From NCBI GenBank assembly GCA_965202585.1, contig OZ241830.1:72726001-72790000 (forward strand): 64,000 nucleotides of DNA, read 5' to 3'. This document shows, piece after piece, positions 2,751 to 63,170 of the stretch. The stretch comes from Thalia democratica. Its lineage: Eukaryota. The notes beneath the pieces are model-generated. The model saw only the letters and a list, made by a program, of their open reading frames with translations, did no database searches and was not told the origin of the DNA. Position 1 is the stretch's first letter. Each line of letters opens with the position of its first letter. The position numbers were made by a program, and so were the translations under genes.

Positions 2751-5700
2751 TTTTATATAAATATCATAAAAAATCACAAGCATTGAGTTTTTTTAAACTT
2801 TTATATACTGTTTAAGTAATTTAATGCAGACGATTTGTTATTTAATATACAGTATTTATAGTTTTGTTAAAGTAATTTTATAATAAAGTTAAACTTCCTT
2901 TCCCTACCAGCCTTTTTCGGAATTTTTAAAACCGTTTTTCAAAACTTTGCTTATGCATCTTTCTTTGGTGCCGTGAAACGATATTAAGTTGTTTCGTTTT
3001 TAATTTGAAGTCTCAACCGGGTTTTTTTTCTAAGACTTTGAAAATTTTGCACCGTAAGCGTTTTTATGAAAGGTTTATCGGATCTGCATTCGTCAAAAAA
3101 AACCTTTCACTGTTTTGAATTCGTCTTTATCAAATAAAAGTATTCTGACGTCGTATTTGTAATTTTTGGTTTTGATAATTTCCATTTTTTTTCTTTTTTT
3201 TTTGTTCGTTTTATTGCTGAAACACATTTCATGTTGTTTATTAAACTATACAAAAAGATTTTCGGTATCATTCAATTTTAGTTTAGTTGGCTCTATATTG
3301 TTTTAGTATGTGAGAATATTAGAGGTTATATATAATTTATACCTAAATAACATTTCATAATATATTCATTTAATACAGATACTATTTACATGACATTTTT
3401 TTTTCTTTTTAAATTGGAGGAGTCAGTTATATAACTCAATAATCAATGTTTTCATAATAAATACATTGATTAAACATAACATATTAAACTAAAAGTCTTG
3501 ATCACAGAACACATCTTAACATACGTACATACTCATTTCATCAATATTTAAAATTATAAAAACAAAATTTTAGAAACTTTTATTTGCAAGATTATAGAAA
3601 AATTTAACTTTAGATCATAAGGTGTTGTTCTTAGCTAAAAGTGACAAATTAAAGTACTTTCTTCTACAATTCAGTTTTATTCTTATAACATTTCTGATTA
3701 AATTAAACCATTATTTAAAAAAATACTCATTAGTTTTTTGTAGTTTTATCGAAATTGTCAATTTTCGACTTTAAGCAGTTTTCAGTACCACAGTTAAGAT
3801 GGTAAGAATACTGGTGAGTTATTTTTTTCTGTGTGACATTTTGATAGGATCTTGAAATGTTTTCAACTTAAAATAAACATTCACGAATTAAGTACTAGTG
3901 TTAGACTTGTAAAAAAATATTCTCGCCTGGCAACACTAACTTCTATCTTAAAAGTTTGTGTATATTTTTCGAAAAAAAATTTAAATTGTGAATGTTTTAT
4001 ATTTTCATCGGACAAACTTAAGTCTTAAGTGACAAAATTTGCAAAACTAAATTAATTTTTTATGCTATTGTTTTTATACTAAACTATATTTTCCAAAACA
4101 GTCTTGCAGATGAACAACCAAAGGAAAAAAACTATCAAATTTAGCTATTAAAAATAACAGCTTAACAATAATCTTTAGATTATTTATAACTTATTAACTT
4201 TGTAAAGTTATAGTGCAACCACACTAAAAACCATATTTAGATTAAACCTAAACTTTACTAATACTAAATAATACTTGGGGCTATTCTATAAAACACTAGG
4301 CATGACAATGAATGAATATATTAAAGAACAGTTGCAAACACTAACAAATATATAAAGAACATCACAGCTTAGAAAATCTATTAACTTTGGTCAAAAATTT
4401 TACACAAGAATTAAATCTAATAGGAATATACTTTAAGAATGTATATAATTAAATAAAGATTTAGCTACTTGAAATTCAGATAAAAAATCAGTTATAAAGC
4501 AATAAATATTATTTAAAAAGAACTTTACAATAAACAAAATAATAACAATTAAATTCAGTTCTGGAACTACATCTGGAAGGTCTTAACTAGAATTATTATT
4601 TCAAGCTTTAGCCTATTTTTATAAAATCCTTATGTGAATAACTAATTAACTACTAGAAATAAATTTTCGATTTAAAAACTTATTTGTAGTAAATTTAAAA
4701 GAAGTATAACCACTTAATTAGATATTTTAAAGTTTCCTTCGCAATACTTAACAAATAAAAAACTGATTTAGAAAAAAAAATACTGTACACGCACAACTTT
4801 TTTATTTAATTTTTATATGTAACAACCATTCAAGTCGCTTAACTATTTTGTTTTTGGTAGTAAAATATTTTACAAACTTTTATTCAAAACACCTTTTATT
4901 CTAGGCTTTTTACATTGTAGAGAAATTTTTTCTAGCACTTTTATGTCTTGATCTTTTACTAATATTTAATCTAATCTTTTTAATGACACTGATGATTTAC
5001 TTAACAGTCGTTCAAAAAAGTTAAGATTACTGTAATAAGTAGTTCAACTTTTAATTCCTATTATTTTAGGTACTAAACAAAATTATTGTTGTCTATTAGT
5101 GCTTTTAAACTACTGTTGTCTATTTTTGAGTAAACAAGCTACTAAATGTTTTTCATTTTTAATATTTTTCTCTAAATTTCTTAGTTTACAATCCTACAAA
5201 ATATATAGCAAAACTTTTTTGTGAACATGTTTTTACAGACAAAACAATTTCAAAGTAAAGCTTTTTCTAATTGTTGCTTAAAAATAAAAAGTTTTAACAA
5301 TCATGTTCAAATTAAATTTAAAAATTAAGCTATAAAAACATTTTAATTTATCATTCAACTGGCTTTAAGCTGTACGGTTTACTTGAAAATTACATAATTA
5401 ATGTTTAGTCAGTTCGCAAAGGATGAATTATTGAAAATACCAACTTTTTTATGTAACTTATAAACATTAAATGATAAACCATTTTTTAGGCTTTTTTTTT
5501 CTCTTCCACTGTAAAATATTATAGTTTTTGCTTTTACATTGAATTTTAATTCTAAATACTCAAATAAAGTATTCGGATGAAGAAATTAACTCTGTTTAAA
5601 TTCAAAATCTCCTTTGATTTTTTTTGCAATATCAAAAGTTCGTTTTTACTAGAAGTAAATTTTAGCAGCGTAAAATATATTTTCAAAAGTTCATACTTGA

Positions 5701-6178
5701 TAACCAGACAGTTTACAAAAAGTTATGAAGTGTTTAAATAATAAAAAAATACCAGTATTCCTTATCCCCTATAATCGACCTCACAAATTCGAGGATGTGC
5801 AATAGTTTTATTTATATACTTATTAAGTTAAGATTTCTCTTACAACTTATTCTTACTCAGGTCATAAAACAAGACTAAACTAAAACTTTAGAGCACTATG
5901 ATAAAATAAGTTTTTGTCAAGTAAGAAAATTTAATGAAAACAGTTAAAAAACGAACTGATTAAAATAATTTGGTTTTTGTACACGATTTGCAAAACACTT
6001 CAACATAATTTTGTAATCAATTAGTTGTCAACAGTAAAATAATGAAACAACATGCGAGTTTTCATTTAAAGTTTGAACAAAATTTAAATAGCTTGCTTTT
6101 TTACATAACAATCTATACGTTAAATTCTACAAACGAAAACTGTTAAAACCAATAATCACTCTTCACAACTGTTATCAA

Positions 6179-7486
6179 CTACAAGTCAAAGCTGGTGAGC
6201 CAAGTGATTTTCTTCTTTTCCCCTTTGCTTTCCTTCGCATCGGCCACAACCTTCTTCGCGAGCTCGGCGCTGAACTCCTCGACGCGCTTTGTGGCGTGCA
6301 CGCCTTTTATCCTGCAAACGTTTCTGTTTCCGGCCCGAACGTTCATCGCTTTCAGCACCCCCATCATGTCCGAGTTGCCTTTCACCCCCAAACCGCTGAA
6401 GTAGGACGAATCGATCAACCTGGCCAGCAACACAGAGTACTTCCCCACGACCGTCTCCTTGCCGTTGACAGCCTCCAGAAAACCTTTCACCTTATTCTTC
6501 CCTTCTTCAATACTCGAGCTTGGATACCCTTTTATCGCCTCCAGCAGTTTCGAGGGTTGCCACCCCAGCAAGTCGCATGTCTGGACGAACAGTGAGGGTA
6601 GGGTCAGACCGTAACCAGTCAGCCGCGACGCTCCGAAGATCTCGGCGCTTATCATCGTCGAAGGGACGCTCAGTTGGACCAGGTAGAGAAGGTAAATCTG
6701 TTTCCTGGCGCCCGAGTCGCCGTTGATGGCGCTAGCGAGCCGTAAAGTCGCGGATTCGGGGAACAAGTGCACCAGAGCTGGGACCTTGTTCTTTTGAGCC
6801 GCGCTCTTCAGATTGTTTCTGACGTAACCGTTGAAGCTGCTCGTGTCCATCTTGCGCAGAAGCGAAATCGTGTTGATGATGGCCAGCACGTAACGTGATA
6901 GGTTCTCATCCGTCAAATCATCGAGAACGGGACCGTAATGCTTTGAATCGTAGGAATTAACCTTCCCGTTTAACTCTGCAGGCTCGTATGCTTTTCGGCT
7001 GGCCTCTTCGTCTTTGAGTATCTGTTTTGCTCTGACACCGACGGTAGAACTTTCCAAAGTCAAGGAGTAGGCGACCTGAAGAAGGTGCTCCAGAGCGGTT
7101 GAAGCTTTCGTTGGGAAAAAAAGAGCTTGAACCGCTTTTTTTGTCTTCGTCATCAGAGACGACCGATCGGTTATTAGTTTGGGAATCGGAAAACTAACGG
7201 TCGAGAGATTGAAAACCGTTGGGCCCGAATCTCCAAGATGAGGACGCCGGCCGGAACGATTCGGCTCTTCGGCTTCTCGGACCGTGTGACTGAAATCATA
7301 CAAACCTAAAGGATCGTCAGGTGAATCGCATAAACCAAGATACATGTCATCCAGACAAAATGGATCAGCAGGCGAATCGTACAATTCATAAGGCCTTTCA
7401 TCTAGATAAAATAGATCATCAAGTCGGCCGTAAAAACCATAGGGCATGTCATCTAGATAATATGGATCGTCAGCGTAGAATTCCAT
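6179..7486 (-). CDS. Intact intronless 435-aa protein; residues ~90-410 resemble a Mononegavirales/Jingchuvirales-type nucleoprotein (endogenous viral element), with an acidic/aromatic repeat N-terminus
   Basis: Long uninterrupted ORF, visibly GC-richer than its flanks. Motifs LLRKMDTSSFNGYVRNNLKSAA, SRLTGYGLTLPSLF and LLARLIDSSYFSGLGVKGNSDM match my recollection of the N-protein pattern (K..Y...R..A; L...G[LM]T; AR[LI][IF]D..YF..L..K.N) of nyami-/xinmo-/chu-like viruses. ORF is certain; the viral assignment is inference. Confidence 0.65.
   Translation of the reverse strand: MEFYADDPYYLDDMPYGFYGRLDDLFYLDERPYELYDSPADPFCLDDMYLGLCDSPDDPLGLYDFSHTVREAEEPNRSGRRPHLGDSGPTVFNLSTVSFPIPKLITDRSSLMTKTKKAVQALFFPTKASTALEHLLQVAYSLTLESSTVGVRAKQILKDEEASRKAYEPAELNGKVNSYDSKHYGPVLDDLTDENLSRYVLAIINTISLLRKMDTSSFNGYVRNNLKSAAQKNKVPALVHLFPESATLRLASAINGDSGARKQIYLLYLVQLSVPSTMISAEIFGASRLTGYGLTLPSLFVQTCDLLGWQPSKLLEAIKGYPSSSIEEGKNKVKGFLEAVNGKETVVGKYSVLLARLIDSSYFSGLGVKGNSDMMGVLKAMNVRAGNRNVCRIKGVHATKRVEEFSAELAKKVVADAKESKGEKKKITWLTSFDL
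7300..7480 (-). repeat. ~3.5 copies of a 51-bp (17-aa) coding tandem repeat at the N-terminus of the N-like ORF
   Basis: tcatc(t/c)aga(t/c)aa recurs at 7347, 7398 and 7449 (spacing 51). Peptides: ADDPYYLDDMPYGFYGR / LDDLFYLDERPYELYDS / PADPFCLDDMYLGLCDS / PDDPLGLYD. Confidence 0.9.
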
Positions 7487-7769
7487 GATTTATGGTGATT
7501 TGCGAGATAAAAGTCAGGTTTCAATCAATTGGTTTATTATACAAGTACTGTTTATAACGCTGAAAAGGGGGATTAAGATTAAGCATTACAAAAAAAACTT
7601 TCTTTAATTAATTTAAAAAATAAGTTTTCTATGTTAAAAAAACACAATACCAACTAAAGTTTTAAATGTTCCAAAGTAATCGTTAAGTAATTAAAATTTA
7701 TTCACTACGCAGCACTGTAGGAAATGTTTACTTTTTTATACTTTACTAGATATTCTTATACACTATGTA

Positions 7770-10700
7770 ATTTACGCAATAGTAATGTAGTATTGAAACT
7801 AAACAATTATTTAATTAAACAAGCGTAAAATGTGTCAGTTCATTACTGTAAACATTTCAGCACATACCATTAAGTTTATATTATATAGTTTATATTTTTA
7901 TTTTACTTGTATATCAATATTCCATATACCAATAACATTAACGATAATTTTAAATCTTAATTGTTAAGACAAAGTTTTCTAAAACATATCTAGCTGCTAT
8001 GAATTTTTCAATTTACTTAGACTTAAGAAAAATAAAGTCAAAAATTTCAACACAAGTAAGCTGAGTTAAATAAATTTATTTAAACATTGAAACCATTGTA
8101 TTATTTTTTTCTATTATTTTTACGAACACCAACAATTAAACTTCCTCTTATTCCTAAAAAAAAATGTTAATAAGCATTAAATCAGATAACTGCTACTAAA
8201 AATAAATTCAATTTAAACGTCGTTATCTTTTATTAGTACTATTAACGCATGATTTTATTTTCATGTGAGAATGAAGCAAAATTATTCTAAGTACAACTCA
8301 CTCAGTGTCGAAGTAACACAGATAAATATTTCAAAAGCGCAGAAATGCAGACGTAAGCAACATTATATATAAGAATTTTAAAAAATCAAACGTTGTAGTT
8401 AACAAGCATTTTTTTACCACCTATAACAATTCATGAAGTTCTTGAACATAATAAAGTGATTTTTACTTTAACCATCATTTTGTCAAAAAAGAAAGTCCAA
8501 TCTTAATTTGATCTTTTTTCAACTTAAATACTTATTTTCATATAGTTTATTAAGAAAACACTTGTAAAATTATCTGCAAATAACTTGTGATGTAACAAAA
8601 AGAAAAAACTAAAAGGAATTGTACAATTATGTTGAACAAAAATAAAGTGTCAATTTAAGTTTTAAGTGTAGACATATTATAGAAAGATCAAGTTAATAAA
8701 AAGTATTTTTTATAGTTTTTACTTGAATATAAAATAATCAATGAAATTTATTAACAACTCATAAAATAAATAAAATACATAAATAAAGTAAAAGTTTGTT
8801 AACACTTTAAATCAATAAATACAACTGATTAATAACCAAAGGCAAGCAAAAGCAAACACATTGAAAGTAATCTTAATAATATGAGTATACATCATTTTAT
8901 CATAAGAAAATGAACAAATTTAAAAAACATATCTCTTTTAATTATAAACTTCCGGAAAACAAAGAGCAGTAACTTAAAACAAATCAACAATAAAGTTAAG
9001 TTTTAGTCTTTTAGCTTTTTTTTTGTTATTAACGATATTTACTATCCAAATAAACTATATAAACTATAAAAAGAATTTACTATGTTAAACATTATATTTT
9101 CACTAAGTGATCTGCATTTACTACAATATATTACACAAAAATAAAGTTACACCAATCTTCAAGAAAAAAAGGCAAGAAATAATATCTAGTAACTTGTAAA
9201 AATGTAAAACTGAAACATTACACTTGGTGTATAATTTATGGTTTTTTACAGTAAATTCTATATTTAAAATAGTATAACATACAAGAAATCATGTAAATAC
9301 TTGTATTACAAGTATAAAGCTGTTTCAAATATAACTAGCTGCTGTAATGTTTACTAAAAACAGTAAAAGAAAAAAATAGCACAAGTTAGCTCAGTAATTC
9401 ATAAAAAAATAACTATTCAACAGCAGTAACAATTATCATAAAAAATAGCACAAGTTAGCTCAGTAATTCATAAAAAAATAACTATTCAACAGCAAATTAT
9501 CTTACTTTCATATAATTTTTTTTAATCTCACTTAAAAACCTTATCAGCGAAGTTAAAACAAAAAATTTTTGTCCTTGTCAAACACGAGATAATTAAATTT
9601 TATCCTCCTTTTTTCAAATGACAAGTAATTTTTTGGGCCGATAAAAAACTTTTAAATTGAAATTTTTTCTTTTAAATTATGTGGTTTACCACAACACTTG
9701 TGCATAAAAAACTCTTTTATGGAAATACTTAAGTTTTTTTCTTACAATTTTTTATTAAAAGCTTTCCAATAGCAACTGCAGGCAACAAGTTTAAGTTCGT
9801 TGAACTTTTAAGAAAATTTAAAATGTTATTACATTCAAACACTTTTAATTTTGTTTGATTTGAAAACTAAATTTAGTTTTAGCTCAACTTTACTTCAACT
9901 AAAAAATCTAAAAAAAATTTTCCAAACAGATTTATAAAAAACTTTTAAAGTTATTCGAAACAGTGTTGAAAGTATAACGTACTTGAAACAAACTTGTACA
10001 ACTTTTGAAAAAAATGTAATAATGTTATAAGGTATTCTTTAACCTTAAGAAATTATATAAGCGATGATTTGAAAATACATTTTTCAAAAATTGCTAAATT
10101 ATTGCGACTCAATAATAATTAGAATGTGAAACCAAGATGTAGAAAGGTATAAGTAAACTTACGTTGTAAATAAAATCTTTATTATATACAAACAAAAATT
10201 ACATGCTTAAATATTACTGAAATTTATTATTTATATAAAACTGATTTATTTCAAGTTAAAAACCATCTTGTTTTAGAACTTTTTTTTTGTTGCTAATATA
10301 TGCATAAAAATTAAAGTATAAATAAAAATTGTAATAACTATATTGCTGTAGCTTTTAAAAACAAAAACAAACAATAAAAAAGCCTTAAAATAAGTTTCGT
10401 TAAAAAGTAAAACTAACTTTAAAATGCACCATTTAGTTTTTTCTTTGCATTCATTTTTGATAAAACAAAACAATTTTAAGAAAAATCAAACATATAATGC
10501 ATCACCGAATAAGAAATAAAAGTTGACCAAAATAATCTTAGATTTTTATCAGTATTTTTGTACTTATACTACTTTCTGAGAAAATAGCAACTGAACTCCC
10601 ATAACTTTGTTAACGAGCTGTTGAACAAAATACTCTTTTAATGCTTCAGAAACTCAAAACATAAATCTTTTACGAGCAAGCTATAAGTTTAAAAAAATAA

Positions 10701-18811: not shown

Positions 18812-21800
18812 ATGGCACTGTCTTCAAAATTTGTTTCATCTGGCAGTTTGTTAAGAAACTTCTGCAAAGCAACATGCGGTTCCAGATTCATGTCAAATGG
18901 TAAGTTGACTTGATAAGTTTTGAAACAAATATTTTGTTGGGTTGTGTTGTAAGCATTTTTAATACTTAGAAAAAATTTGTAACTAGTTTTGTATTTAAAA
19001 ACTATAAAATATTTTTTGTATAAAAATATTTTAGTGTTTGCAGATTTTAATTGGTCACACACTTTTAAATTGTTTGTACGAATCCAAACTTGTAAGCTTT
19101 AAATCAATATTTATTTTTTTAATGATTAGCTTTATATGTATTTTTTTAATTTCAGTGTCAAAAATAGTTGTGCACTGCTAAAATATTTAGTGTTCTTTTA
19201 CAAAAGTTGTATAATTTTAGTCTAAGCAATAAAAAAGAAAAATGTTGAAGTTGCTGACACATACGAGAACATCATAGTTGATAATCAATAGAATAATTAA
19301 AAATAAATATATATAAATTATTCTAACATACATGAGAACATTATTGTGAATTTGTACATACATCAATAAATACTATATGAGCAAGAAAAATGTTACAAAC
19401 AATATCTAAAATTGCTGACACATACAAGAACATCATAGTTGGTAATCAATAGAACAATTAAAAATAAATATATATAAATTATTCTAACATACATGAGAAC
19501 ATTATTGTGAATTTGTACATACATCAATAAATACTGTTTGAGCAAGAAAAATGTTGAAAACAATATCAAAAATTGCTGACACATACAAGAACATCATAGT
19601 TGATAATCAATAGAACAATTAAAAATAAATAAATATAAATTATTCTAACATACATGAGAACATTATTGTGAATTTGTACATACATCAATAAATACTATTT
19701 GAGCAAGAAAAATGTTACAAACAATATCAAAAATTGCTGACACATACGAGAACATCATAGTTGGTAATCAATAGAACAATTGAAAATAAATATATATAAT
19801 TTATTCTAACATACATGAGAACATTATTGTGAATTTGTACATACATCAATAAATACTATTTGAGCAAGAAAAATGTTACAAACAAGATCAAAAATTGCTG
19901 ACACATACGAGAACACCATAGTTGATAATCAATAGAACAATTAAAAATAAATATGTATAAATTATTCTAACATACATGAGAACATTATTGTGAATTTGTA
20001 CACACATCAATAAATACTATTTGAGCAAGAAAAATGTTGACAACAGTATCAAAAATTGCTGACACATACGAGAACATCATAGTTGATAATCAATAGAACA
20101 TTTAATAATAAATATATATAAATTATTCTAACATACATGAGATCATTATTGTGAATTTGTACATACATCAATAAATACTATTTCAGCAAGAAAAAAAATG
20201 TTGAAAATAATATCAAAAATTGCAGACACGTACGAGAACATCATAGTTGATAATCAATAGAACAATTAAAAATAAATATGTATAAATTATTCTACCATAC
20301 ATGAGAACATTATTGTGAATTTGTACATACATCAATAAATACTGTTTAAGCAAGAAAAATGTTGAAAACAATATCAAAAATTGCTGACACATACAAGAAC
20401 ATCATAGTTGATAATCAATAGAACAATTAAAAATAAATATGTATAAATTATTCTAACATACATGAGAACATTATTGTGAATTTGTACATACATTAATAAA
20501 TACTATTTGAGCAAGAAAAATGTTGAAAACAATATCAAAAATTGCAGACACGTACGAGAACATCATAGTAGAGAAGAAGGGTGCCAACGGTTCAGTTGGA
20601 TTGATCCAGTTGAACCGTCCCAAGGCGCTCAATGCATTGTGTGATGCTCTCATGAGTGACGTCAACAGCGCTCTTGCCAAGTTTGCTGATGATAAGGACG
20701 TCGGTTGCATTGTTCTCACCGGATCACAAAAAGCTTTCGCAGGTTTGTGAAAGTTTGATGTTCAAAAAGTACTAACAAACTGTCAAGTGCTTTAAAATGC
20801 TATATGCAGTGCTTTAAAAGTTCTTAAACATGAAAAATAAACTTAATTTTATAGTTTTTAGTATGATTTAACAAAAATTTAGTTCAATTTTTTTTTACTT
20901 AAAAATAAATTTATATAACAGTAATATAAAAAGCATGCTAATTATATTTAAAATACATGAAAGTTTCATTGTTCTAATTGGTTCACAAAAAGCTTTTGCA
21001 GATATTTTATACTGAAAGTTGTCAATTGATTTTTAAATTTAAACTTTTTTAAATATATAAATACAGCAAGCTCTCACATAAAGTTTTGTTTAGTTGTTAA
21101 ATTGTCTATTGCTAGATATATATAACAACAGTAATTTGTAGTTTGCTTCTATTCGCTTTTTGATAAATGTAAAATGGTTGCCAAACAATCAGGACACTCT
21201 TTATAACTCAGGATATTTTGAAATTTATGAAAATATCAGGATGACATTTGATAACTCAGTATAAATCAGGATACTATAATTTTTTATTGCAACTTAGGCT
21301 GACTTAGGATGTTTTGTTTTTTTTAATGAAAAACTAAGAATTTTTTTAAAACTAAAAAGTTCTCAAGACACATTGACACTAAATCTAGAGTGAGATTTAT
21401 TTGATCTAGTTACAGCATTATGTCATTTAAATAATTAATTTTTTACAAGTGCTTGACCTTTATTAATTTTAAATTTTTTTATTGATTTAACTTTTTTTAG
21501 CCTTGCGGGTAGCTGTCTACTACTATTACAAATAAAATTTTAGTTTTTGTTTTAAATATGAAATTAATATTCATTATGATTTGAATTTATGTTAAACAGA
21601 AACAGTTAGAGACATATAAAGTTTTACTACTTTTTATATAGTTTTAATAAACTTTTTTACTATAGTTGCTTTTAAAGTATTATAAAATTATATTGTTTTA
21701 TATGTCCTTAGTTTATAGATAAAGTTATTTGCTGTAACTTATAAATACTTGTTTTAAACAAGCAAAGCTAAAAATAAGTTTCGACTAGTACACTAAATTT

Positions 21801-31726: not shown

Positions 31727-32812
31727 TTATTTACTCATTTCGTCAAGGTACCAGCCTGGCAAAAAAGCGTTTGCAGAATTTTTTTCGAGTTTCATTTCAA
31801 CAAAATCACTTTTAAACTCCCAACTCACCACGCAGCAGGTATCGATCTCGTCAACATTTTCCATCGCCTTCACAATTTCCCATAAAACGTTCCCAGTGAA
31901 CCGGACGCACTTTGCAGGGCTCCAAGGGAAACCCTCTAAATGCTGCCTAGCTAAACTTGGCAGCTCACCGACTTCGAACTTCTCAAGTGACCTGACCAGT
32001 CCCTTTTCGTCTCTGAACCCGCAAACTATAGCTGGTGTTCCGCTCAAATAAGCCTCAAGCCACCAATTTAGCAACTTACTGCGAAAAAAAAGTTGCTCTT
32101 GTTTGAAACAAGTCATAATTTTGGTCGTTTTCAACTCGATATGGTTAGCCGGAGAGCCAATAAATCCCTTACCCTTGTCCACACAGTCAATTTGTGTCCC
32201 GAAAATTATCGGCAAATTGTCGCCGAATCGGGACGAAATTACAGAAAAATATGCTTCTTTGGTGTTGACCACCCTCTCTTGCCGTTTTTTGACGTCCATT
32301 TTCGTGTCGTTGCACGGTGCGGTCACGTACTTTTCAAACTTGAGGCCCCAATATCGGTGCGGTTGGTACTGTAAACAGTCGTTATCAGGCGCATGTATGT
32401 CATTCAAGTAAACTACTCCTTTGAATTTCTGCGCTACCAGCACCCATGAATTTCTTGTCTCGTAGTTTGTGCGCATCAGTTTATCTAGACATCTGCGTTT
32501 TGTCACTATCTGATTCGTCGAAGGGCTGAATTTGTCTCTGTTCGCCAAAATCCAGTTCAGCATGGTTCGGAGCCGGCCCTTTTGGTTGGGGTCTCTTATT
32601 ACGAACTGTGTTCGGAAACCGTGATTCAGGTCGAACGGTTCATCGAGGACGATTCGCTTCCAGTCGTTGCGTTTTGTTTTCGGCGGGGCAAAGTAGCTCA
32701 TCTCCTGGTTGCTGTCCCTGAACCTTTGGTTTTCGTCGGTTGAGAACCTGCCCACTTCAACCGGCTGCTGGTACGTCTGTTTTTTCTCGTTGAGTTCTTT
32801 TATGCTGAACAT
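31727..32812 (-). CDS. DXO: Intronless DXO/Dom3Z/Rai1-family decapping 5'-3' exoribonuclease-like protein (361 aa), divergent active site
   Basis: Motifs VGRFS..., RRCLDKLMRTNYE, YWGLKFEKYV, VNTKEAYFSVISSRFG, FGTQIDCVD, IELKT and KLLNWWLEAYLSGTPAIVCGFRD align in order to the DXO motifs WRGHLTKLLTTPYE, YMGYKFEQY, VNTNVAFCSVLRSRLG, FSGEVDC, VELKT and KLLKWWAQSFLPGVPNVVAGFR. Candidate acceptor tttcgcag ends 9 nt before the ATG. May be a paralog rather than the ortholog. Confidence 0.88.
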   Translation of the reverse strand: MFSIKELNEKKQTYQQPVEVGRFSTDENQRFRDSNQEMSYFAPPKTKRNDWKRIVLDEPFDLNHGFRTQFVIRDPNQKGRLRTMLNWILANRDKFSPSTNQIVTKRRCLDKLMRTNYETRNSWVLVAQKFKGVVYLNDIHAPDNDCLQYQPHRYWGLKFEKYVTAPCNDTKMDVKKRQERVVNTKEAYFSVISSRFGDNLPIIFGTQIDCVDKGKGFIGSPANHIELKTTKIMTCFKQEQLFFRSKLLNWWLEAYLSGTPAIVCGFRDEKGLVRSLEKFEVGELPSLARQHLEGFPWSPAKCVRFTGNVLWEIVKAMENVDEIDTCCVVSWEFKSDFVEMKLEKNSANAFLPGWYLDEMSK

Positions 32813-62844: not shown

Positions 62845-63170
62845 ATTTTTTAGAAAATCCTAGCATAAATGTATCTAGATAAACAAACGACATATAAGGA
62901 ACTTTTACAATTAAAACCTTGAATTAATAACGAACTTTCACAACTAAAATCTTAAAACAATAACAAGTTTTTACAGTTGAAACCTTAAAACAATAAATAA
63001 TACTATTTTTTAGAATTTCCTAGTATAAATGTATCTAAATGAACGAAACAACATATAAGGAACTTATAAAATTGAAACCTTAAATTAAGAAGGAACTTTC
63101 ACAACTCAAACCTTAAAACAATAACGAACTTTTACAGTTAAAACATAAAAACAATAAAGAAATTAATCAA
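62845..63170. repeat. Tandem duplication, ~160-bp unit with ~30-bp subrepeats, in an ORC3 intron
   Basis: tttttagaa..tcctag(c/t)ataaatgtatcta...catataaggaactt...aactttcacaact occurs twice. Confidence 0.8.

Follow-up and report, generated by a model that had tools for sequence, protein, structure and literature searches.

Genes derived from mononegaviral nucleoproteins (N) and co-opted by their hosts are already known, namely the EBLNs and the filovirus NP elements. The itEBLN of the thirteen-lined ground squirrel is N-derived and was proposed to co-assemble with the viral RNP and to act as a dominant negative (PMC4964890). Suppression of bornavirus was reported for itEBLN, with 77% identity, whereas hsEBLN-1, with 41% identity, did not suppress it (PMC4982594). 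The afrotherian cluster I EBLNs exhibit N open frames under purifying selection with an omega of 0.34 and were duplicated at the DNA level in elephants (PMC4982594), and the spalacid filovirus NP-like ORFs are a further mononegaviral N kept open under purifying selection (PMC11398700). Novirhabdoviruses are major fish pathogens, and their early-chordate origin was argued from ascidian metatranscriptomes with an indirect host assignment (10.1101/2024.12.15.628590). The novirhabdo-like viruses of Ciona, Botryllus and Botrylloides are exogenous contigs whose host was deduced indirectly, and the same authors state that thaliacean viromes were not fully explorable; the supplements of this work may hold the closest viral N sequences (10.1101/2024.12.15.628590). 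A co-opted N of novirhabdovirus-like origin, or from a tunicate, is apparently unreported. No novirhabdovirus-like or tunicate nucleoprotein EVE appeared in the titles and abstract openings of a mainly open-access literature, the main text of a paper on tunicate horizontal transfer (PMC13390645) mentions neither rhabdoviruses nor nucleoprotein, and an amphioxus survey names rhabdoviruses only in a reference (PMC10145014).

The gene described here, called family A, shares with the N of novirhabdoviruses and of Chemarfal virus 1 the PF03216 family, the two-lobed N fold and common motifs, and differs from them in being chromosomal and alone, in having no long C-terminal tail and in carrying an N-terminus made of a 17-aa repeat. 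The ascidian novirhabdo-like viruses are of the same virus lineage and were assigned to the same subphylum, but they are exogenous, whereas family A is integrated in the germline (10.1101/2024.12.15.628590). None of the matches of family A could be recognised as one of their N sequences, and a direct kinship is at most putative. The afrotherian EBLNs and the spalacid NP ORFs come from another virus family and other hosts, and expression, orthology and age were shown there, whereas family A is described from its sequence (PMC4982594, PMC11398700). Unlike both of these, family A and its paralogues (family B) were amplified in tandem, show a turnover of pseudogenes and include a newly acquired repeat module. 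Finally, itEBLN is a young element with 77% identity to its target (PMC4982594), whereas family A appears ancient and no close target of it is known.

The window, which is the whole 64-kb stretch of DNA that was analysed, contains one intact copy of the gene (Table 1). The original prediction had described a 435-codon uninterrupted ORF, and the frame indeed runs on the minus strand from the ATG at 7486 to the TAG at 6179 with zero internal stops. It is the longest among the 11 stop-to-stop frames of at least 100 aa in the window. The five alternative frames across it contain 15-24 stops each, and after shuffling of its bases (n=300) the longest open frame averaged 111 aa, with a maximum of 208 aa; the 435-aa frame is therefore far beyond chance. 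The ORF forms an island of 48-51% GC inside DNA of 24% GC, and host coding sequences near the locus have a similar GC content, with a GC3 of 0.56-0.92. As had been claimed, no viral genes neighbour it: no other long virus-like ORF was found in the window or in the preceding 20 kb, and genome-wide the mononegaviral L-like matches were restricted to contigs C1 and C7. An Rfam search of 4000-10000 gave 0 matches.

Table 1. Coordinates of the family A gene and of its candidate signals in the window.
Feature	Position	Strand	Detail
Family A gene, intact 435-aa ORF, endogenous gammarhabdovirus-like nucleoprotein	6179..7486	minus	one assembly copy
Nucleoprotein core, aa ~92-435	6182..7213	minus	sequence, fold model
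Pfam PF03216, aa 125-378	6353-7114	minus	E 3e-12
51-bp (17-aa) tandem repeat, aa 6-66	7289..7471	minus	3 units and a degenerate fourth
AT-rich 3' flank, likely 3' UTR	5860..6160	minus	best block common with family B at 6023-6039
AATAAA, candidate polyadenylation signal	5807..5812	minus	366 nt past the stop; sequence
Pyrimidine tract and CAG, splice/trans-splice acceptor look-alike	7560..7571	minus	ends 74 nt before the ATG; sequence

An 81-Mb contig carries the gene. Host genes flank it, on one side an IQ-motif gene that ends at 354 and that we take to be SPATA17-like, on the other enoyl-CoA hydratase exons starting at 20511, and the intergenic DNA in which it stands is AT-rich. Its 3' end is spanned by the public contigs X3 (5977-6234) and X4 (6080-6275) and its 5' end by X1/X2 (7117-7547) and X4 (7455-7874). 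These bridging sequences are assembled contigs, not long reads, and come from 3 samples of 3 studies; each extends at least 31 letters on either side, with an ORF depth like that of the flanks. Runs assigned to organism A and to organism B both contain the locus, and near-identical copies are present in marine metagenomes. The 48% GC island amid 24% GC DNA could point to an assembly chimera or a contaminating virus. Against this reading, the local host ORFs match the family A ORF in GC and GC3, contigs from other samples span both ends at flank-like depth, and the paralogues are located within host segmental duplications. Because both ends are bridged in 3 samples, the locus is not an assembly chimera; such an origin is already largely refuted and retains hardly any probability.

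The original prediction had placed the ORF amid heavily decayed repeats, which did not hold. A genome search with 4500-9500 gave only a 94-bp edge repeat and the paralogues on contig C10 among the 40 candidates scored of 444, and the flanks are essentially single-copy. The intronless state, correct in that the gene is a single ORF, is not diagnostic and says little, since the neighbouring PSMB5, DUF2053, TPR gene and DXO likewise read as single long ORFs. The apparently intronless conserved genes lying 6-20 kb before the window (TPR/FKBP-like, PSMB5 and DUF2053/TMEM147-like) have a GC3 of 0.66-0.76, and the genome exhibits a strong contrast between coding and non-coding GC (gene GC3 0.66-0.76 in 24% GC DNA). 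The DXO/RAI1 decapping nuclease gene is a single ORF on the minus strand at 31727-32812 (PF08652, E 7e-73) that probably sits within other host genes or in the space separating them. Elsewhere in the window, a 161-bp satellite (19251-20569, 8.2 copies, 94% identity) immediately precedes the first of the enoyl-CoA hydratase exons that were found, and a second 161-bp period occurs at 62845-63158. The GC-richer stretch 2356-2790 contains several short frames and is possibly a decayed retroelement or gene fragment; the one frame examined gave no Pfam match. The host is, judged on its sequences, a tunicate, likely a pelagic one and probably a thaliacean. PSMB5 had its nearest named matches in Ciona, Clavelina and Phallusia and fell in the same clade in a quick tree, and the mitochondrial COX1 used AGA/AGG for glycine at 32 conserved positions (code table 13). 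Several decayed COX1 copies at C4:56.84-56.94 Mb and on C757 are nuclear mitochondrial insertions.

We then examined the family A protein itself. Its PF03216 score was 47 bits for a cut-off of 25 (E 3e-12). A HMMER search of 1.84 billion representatives returned 9 matches, four from the element's own family and five PF03216 proteins from the virus side. The named viral matches were the N of Carpione rhabdovirus (3e-21), Chemarfal virus 1 (2.5e-18) and IHNV (7e-13), and the unnamed ones were a JGI protein (8e-21, 32% identity) and a Logan protein on an 11-kb contig (6e-17). We take Carpione rhabdovirus to be a Novirhabdovirus and Chemarfal virus 1 to belong to Margarhavirus/Gammarhabdovirinae. 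Of the virus-like relatives, the JGI protein (P0016, 475 aa) comes closest to the element; it and the Logan proteins P0018/P0026/P0027 (419 aa, on contigs of about 11 kb) are unnamed PF03216 nucleoproteins and probably the N of undescribed gammarhabdoviruses. Local identity with the N of Carpione rhabdovirus, Chemarfal virus 1, IHNV and VHSV was 26-32%, and over the core columns the nearest known viral N reached 21-26%. A PDB sequence search gave no relative (best E 0.76), and the ESM Atlas gave no usable match for the core or the N-terminus.

The core model (aa 88-435, built from 28 alignment rows including viral ones) had a pLDDT of 84 and exhibited the two-lobed helical fold of mononegaviral N. 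In a structure search it ranked VHSV N first (E 9e-10, TM 0.77). A wide search of the PDB gave mononegaviral N in all of the top 15 rows (SVCV N: Z 17.1, rmsd 4.1, 296 aligned; rabies N: Z 16.3), with the first cellular row at Z 6.8, and every row listed by Foldseek against the PDB was N (best E 1.8e-3). The first AlphaFold model, made from 6 close rows and no viral rows, was poor (pLDDT 42) and was kept solely as a control independent of viral sequences; it still ranked VHSV N first (E 8e-5), with the xinmo- and lispi-labelled rows far below. The homodimer prediction scored 0.00 and gives no verdict either way. Both motifs quoted in the original prediction, RLTGYGLT among them, are present in the protein. 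The motifs common to family A and viral N lie around K212, R288-G293, P311-L314 and F363-N371. Of the columns invariant in five viral N proteins, family A keeps 14/25, including K212 and R288, and R356 (R/K in all five) is retained in this allele; by analogy, K212, R288 and R356 may have a role in RNA binding. In a leave-one-out comparison, families A and B kept 47-59% of the virus-invariant columns vs 67-93% for the viruses. The core stops short of the long C-terminal tail of viral N.

The PF03216 matches, the named viral relatives and the top rank of VHSV N with both structure models indicate a gammarhabdovirus-like (novirhabdovirus-like) N as the source, as far as sequence and modelled fold can tell. 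The nyami-, xinmo- or chu-like N that had been proposed was not borne out: no such family occurred among the 9 HMMER matches, the xinmo-/lispi-labelled structure rows had E values of 0.11-0.73, chu-like structure rows were weak too, and the relatives found are PF03216 gammarhabdoviruses. The broader claim of an integrated mononegaviral N gene agrees with the PF03216 match, the N fold and the chromosomal flanks, and with both ends being bridged, although by contigs rather than by the long reads that had been suggested for excluding a chimera. Family A is almost certainly a real integrated gammarhabdovirus-like N gene.

The original prediction overlooked the N-terminal tandem repeat and five broken paralogues of the gene. 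The first 66 residues contain 18 D/E, 15 Y/F, 7 P and 2 K/R, and the repeat region is predicted to be disordered. Its GC3 is 0.30 in comparison with 0.66 for the core. The 17-aa repeat occurs nowhere else in the genome, and neither family B nor viral N has it. A derivation from the N-terminus of family B, suggested by a likeness of the type SPxDP...GxY, was not significant, 22/200 shuffles reaching the score. Upstream of the ATG, one C10 copy has an acceptor-like site similar to that of family A, 39 nt before its own ATG. Look-alikes of the viral transcription stop were not found next to the family A ORF, as would be expected from erosion with age.

The five broken paralogues form family B (four on C10 and one on C4) and are about 46-48% identical to family A. 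The four C10 copies lie in tandem segments that are 95-99% identical, each copy with a stop or a frameshift; the C4 copy has 10 stops in its match, and the C10 flanks common to C4 are about 79% identical. The segmental duplications at C10:20.945-21.14 Mb that carry the copies are about 55-70 kb apart. These copies adjoin a gene resembling DXD glycosyltransferases (PF04488, E 0.003); one unit has it intact, as a 497-aa frame, and in other units it is broken. Marine metagenomes contain intact A-type proteins (P0002 and P0007, 435 aa full length, 96%), frameshifted A-type relatives (P0004-6 and P0013, 88-90% identity), intact B-type proteins in two sub-lineages that are 76% identical to each other (P0003/9 and P0011/42/43), and fragmented B-type sequences that correspond to the C10 copies (P0012, P0014 and P0044). 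Several metagenomic relatives on contigs of about 1.7-1.85 kb could be read as mRNA; GC-biased DNA assembly gives the same picture, and they were not counted. Pattern matches for related loci in metagenome and viral contigs numbered 428 and 600, none of them confirmed, and a 17-nt pattern scan of metagenome contigs gave chance matches (0/120 with a tblastn match, for at least 120 loci). Families A and B form one clade (support 100/100) on a long stem, whose position among the viruses is uncertain in this N tree with long branches and no outgroup.

Two further loci in the genome carry rhabdovirus-like L sequences. The first, C1:23095391-23098442, is a long broken L-polymerase element from a VSV/rabies-like rhabdovirus (PDB VSV L, E 9e-122) with a GC3 of 0.41, and is a second, independent mononegaviral capture. 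At the other, C7:31964677-31968066, a rhabdovirus-like virus of greater divergence has left a tandem pair of L-polymerase fragments with open frames of 718 and 370 aa. A GIY-YIG-like ORF (PF01541, E 1.4e-4), which presumably resembles the end of a Penelope-type retroelement, immediately precedes them; these fragments may show the capture route and may belong to a novirhabdo-like virus. The two L elements are unrelated and record repeated germline infection. We rejected the GC3 of the family A core (0.66, with 0.56-0.92 for host genes and 0.41-0.43 for the L elements) as proof of amelioration, since novirhabdovirus genes are themselves GC-rich.

The dN/dS between A and B informs on the host phase only if the two share a single origin. 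At shared degenerate residues, 81/157 codons were identical vs 57 expected from codon usage (p 2e-4), in a saturation test that compared the two families with each other. Both families terminate at the same place, and the first ~300 nt past the stop are collinear at about 55%. When 1024 tiles were scanned blind with the C4 and C10 3' flanks, two queries that are not independent, the 400-nt tile following the A stop came 1st and 2nd. The flank score was reached by 5/1500 real control stretches, and two tests against real sequence gave a p of 0.003-0.02; by nhmmer the shared flank had an E of 10-12, and it was not among the top 6 of blastn. The 3' flank of A is thus probably homologous to those of B, with moderate support from the alignment. 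No homology was aligned further out or upstream of the genes. Counting occurrences of the shared 3' motif across the genome (9 matches, 5 of them at A/B loci) was post hoc and was set aside as a test. Because the codons are unsaturated, the end point is the same, the 3' flank is collinear and the two families form one clade, we consider it likely that A and B come from a single integration followed by host duplication.

Given this single origin, the selection on the frame was estimated from the comparison of family A with the C10 copies, which gave a dN of 0.43-0.45, a dS of about 1.5 and an omega of 0.3 (bootstrap CI 0.19-0.43). Neutral drift of 0.25-0.75 substitutions/site would predict 11-43 stops, and even 0.25 substitutions/site at least 10 stops and about 9 frameshifts; family A has none of either. 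Since its dN/dS is about 0.3 and its frame is unbroken, purifying selection probably acted in the host, provided that the single origin holds. Among the C10 copies, C10a vs the others gave an omega of 1.2-1.5, which identifies them as neutral pseudogenes. In population contigs, gaps were present in 0/10 ORF pieces vs 18/22 flank pieces among the 32 listed of 633, and the ratio of ORF to flank divergence was 0.40-0.76 in 3 samples among the pieces listed, while the broken C10 gene bodies diverged about 2 times as much as their flanks. Calibrated on those broken gene bodies, the indel deficit of the ORF had a P of 0.01-0.17 among the 12 listed of 67 indel rows. Both in-ORF SNPs among the 40 listed of 325 SNP rows were non-synonymous. 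The core differs from P0002 at 13 positions, about 10 of which look derived in this allele, with radical changes such as three K-to-E, K-to-I and S-to-F; P0002 itself is without the conserved R356. The selection on family A is now possibly relaxed or positive. The overall picture is one of long moderate constraint with gene turnover. Between the two outcomes offered by the original prediction, long purifying selection is thus favoured over a recent capture, and its choice of this gene as a domestication candidate was right. Domestication at some stage is likely, and family A is somewhat more probably than otherwise still domesticated today.

Two other histories would account for part of these data. 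If A and B were separate captures from related viruses, the omega of 0.3 would reflect the viral phase and A would be intact only through its youth. The A-B identity of 46% indeed equals that of Carpione rhabdovirus vs IHNV (47%), 17 amino-acid changes without a stop are not improbable, and the 5' flanks are without homology. Such an origin is nonetheless quite improbable in view of the unsaturated codons and the 3' non-coding flank common to both families, and in addition the deeply conserved motifs are gone on both branches, a host-like AT-rich repeat was inserted in frame, and a duplication younger than the B integration already has flanks that are ~20% diverged, with intact B-type ORFs persisting. 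Somewhat less improbable, though still unlikely, is a gene domesticated long ago that has outlived its target virus, with B dead in this genome and A starting to decay. The derived and often radical changes that make up about 10/13 of the core differences from P0002, the existence of frameshifted A-type relatives and the breakage of all five B copies would fit such a decay; the 0 gaps in the 10 listed in-ORF pieces, an ORF divergence below that of the flanks in 3 samples and the two full-length 435-aa relatives P0002 and P0007 speak against it, and the radical changes could equally come from positive selection.

As for the function, the reading that we favour, tentatively and by analogy, is that the family A protein is a decoy. 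The tandem amplification, the pseudogene turnover and the hypervariable N-terminus would resemble the birth and death of immune genes; a decoy fits this pattern and the repeated germline infection, and itEBLN is its precedent. A cellular job, as was proposed for the afrotherian EBLNs, would use the RNA-binding or scaffolding N fold with the new acidic aromatic N-terminal interaction module. It explains the same selection evidence (omega 0.3, unbroken frame), and the omega resembles the 0.34 of the afrotherian EBLNs, which are ER-localised proteins (PMC4982594); the distance from known viruses, the loss of virus-invariant columns and the repeat module would suit it as well. The frequent pseudogenisation of A and B better fits a dispensable immune gene, and a cellular role has a minor, if real, share of the probability. 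An element acting as RNA, a piRNA or siRNA source whose protein would be irrelevant, has a precedent in rodent and primate EBLNs (PMC4964890) and is very improbable here: the selection acts on amino acids and frame, the locus is a gene-bearing intergenic stretch with no repeat cluster, and the element would share too little nucleotide identity with any present-day virus to target it.

In the decoy reading, the N mRNA of a novirhabdovirus-like virus would have been reverse-transcribed and integrated in the tunicate germline, where it would have gained host signals, the acceptor-like site at 7560 and the AATAAA at 5807-5812, and host-driven expression. Duplication in the host would have followed; the divergence of A and B would have accrued there, and the repeat would then have been gained in A. 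The family A protein may co-assemble with incoming viral N or N0-P, or bind viral RNA, and the mixed nucleocapsids would be templates unreadable by the viral polymerase. The acidic aromatic repeat, at the position of the viral N-arm, may add steric blocking or a docking site for a host factor. The dominant-negative mechanism of the original prediction is plausible in this respect by analogy. Since known viral N are 21-26% identical to family A and the 41%-identical hsEBLN-1 did not suppress bornavirus, a decoy would need an unsampled closer virus. Taken jointly, an N-derived tunicate gene integrated once, duplicated in the host, kept by purifying selection and serving as an antiviral decoy is a possible account that we hold at a little under even confidence. 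That one lineage of pelagic tunicates long ago domesticated a novirhabdovirus-like N into a rapidly turning-over antiviral family, with the repeat as its effector module, is a wider and rather unlikely proposal; families A and B were possibly kept reciprocally in sister species.

This germline fossil, as a gammarhabdovirus-like N, is direct evidence of a novirhabdovirus-like lineage infecting tunicates, the closest invertebrate kin of vertebrates, and orthology of family A across species would date the infection. If selection and expression are confirmed, co-opted N, so far of bornavirus and filovirus origin in mammals, would gain an example from an invertebrate chordate and another virus group, one that forms a small gene family and has added a repeat module of its own. 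A virus-derived immunity of this kind would be directly testable with the existing fish-rhabdovirus minigenome systems.
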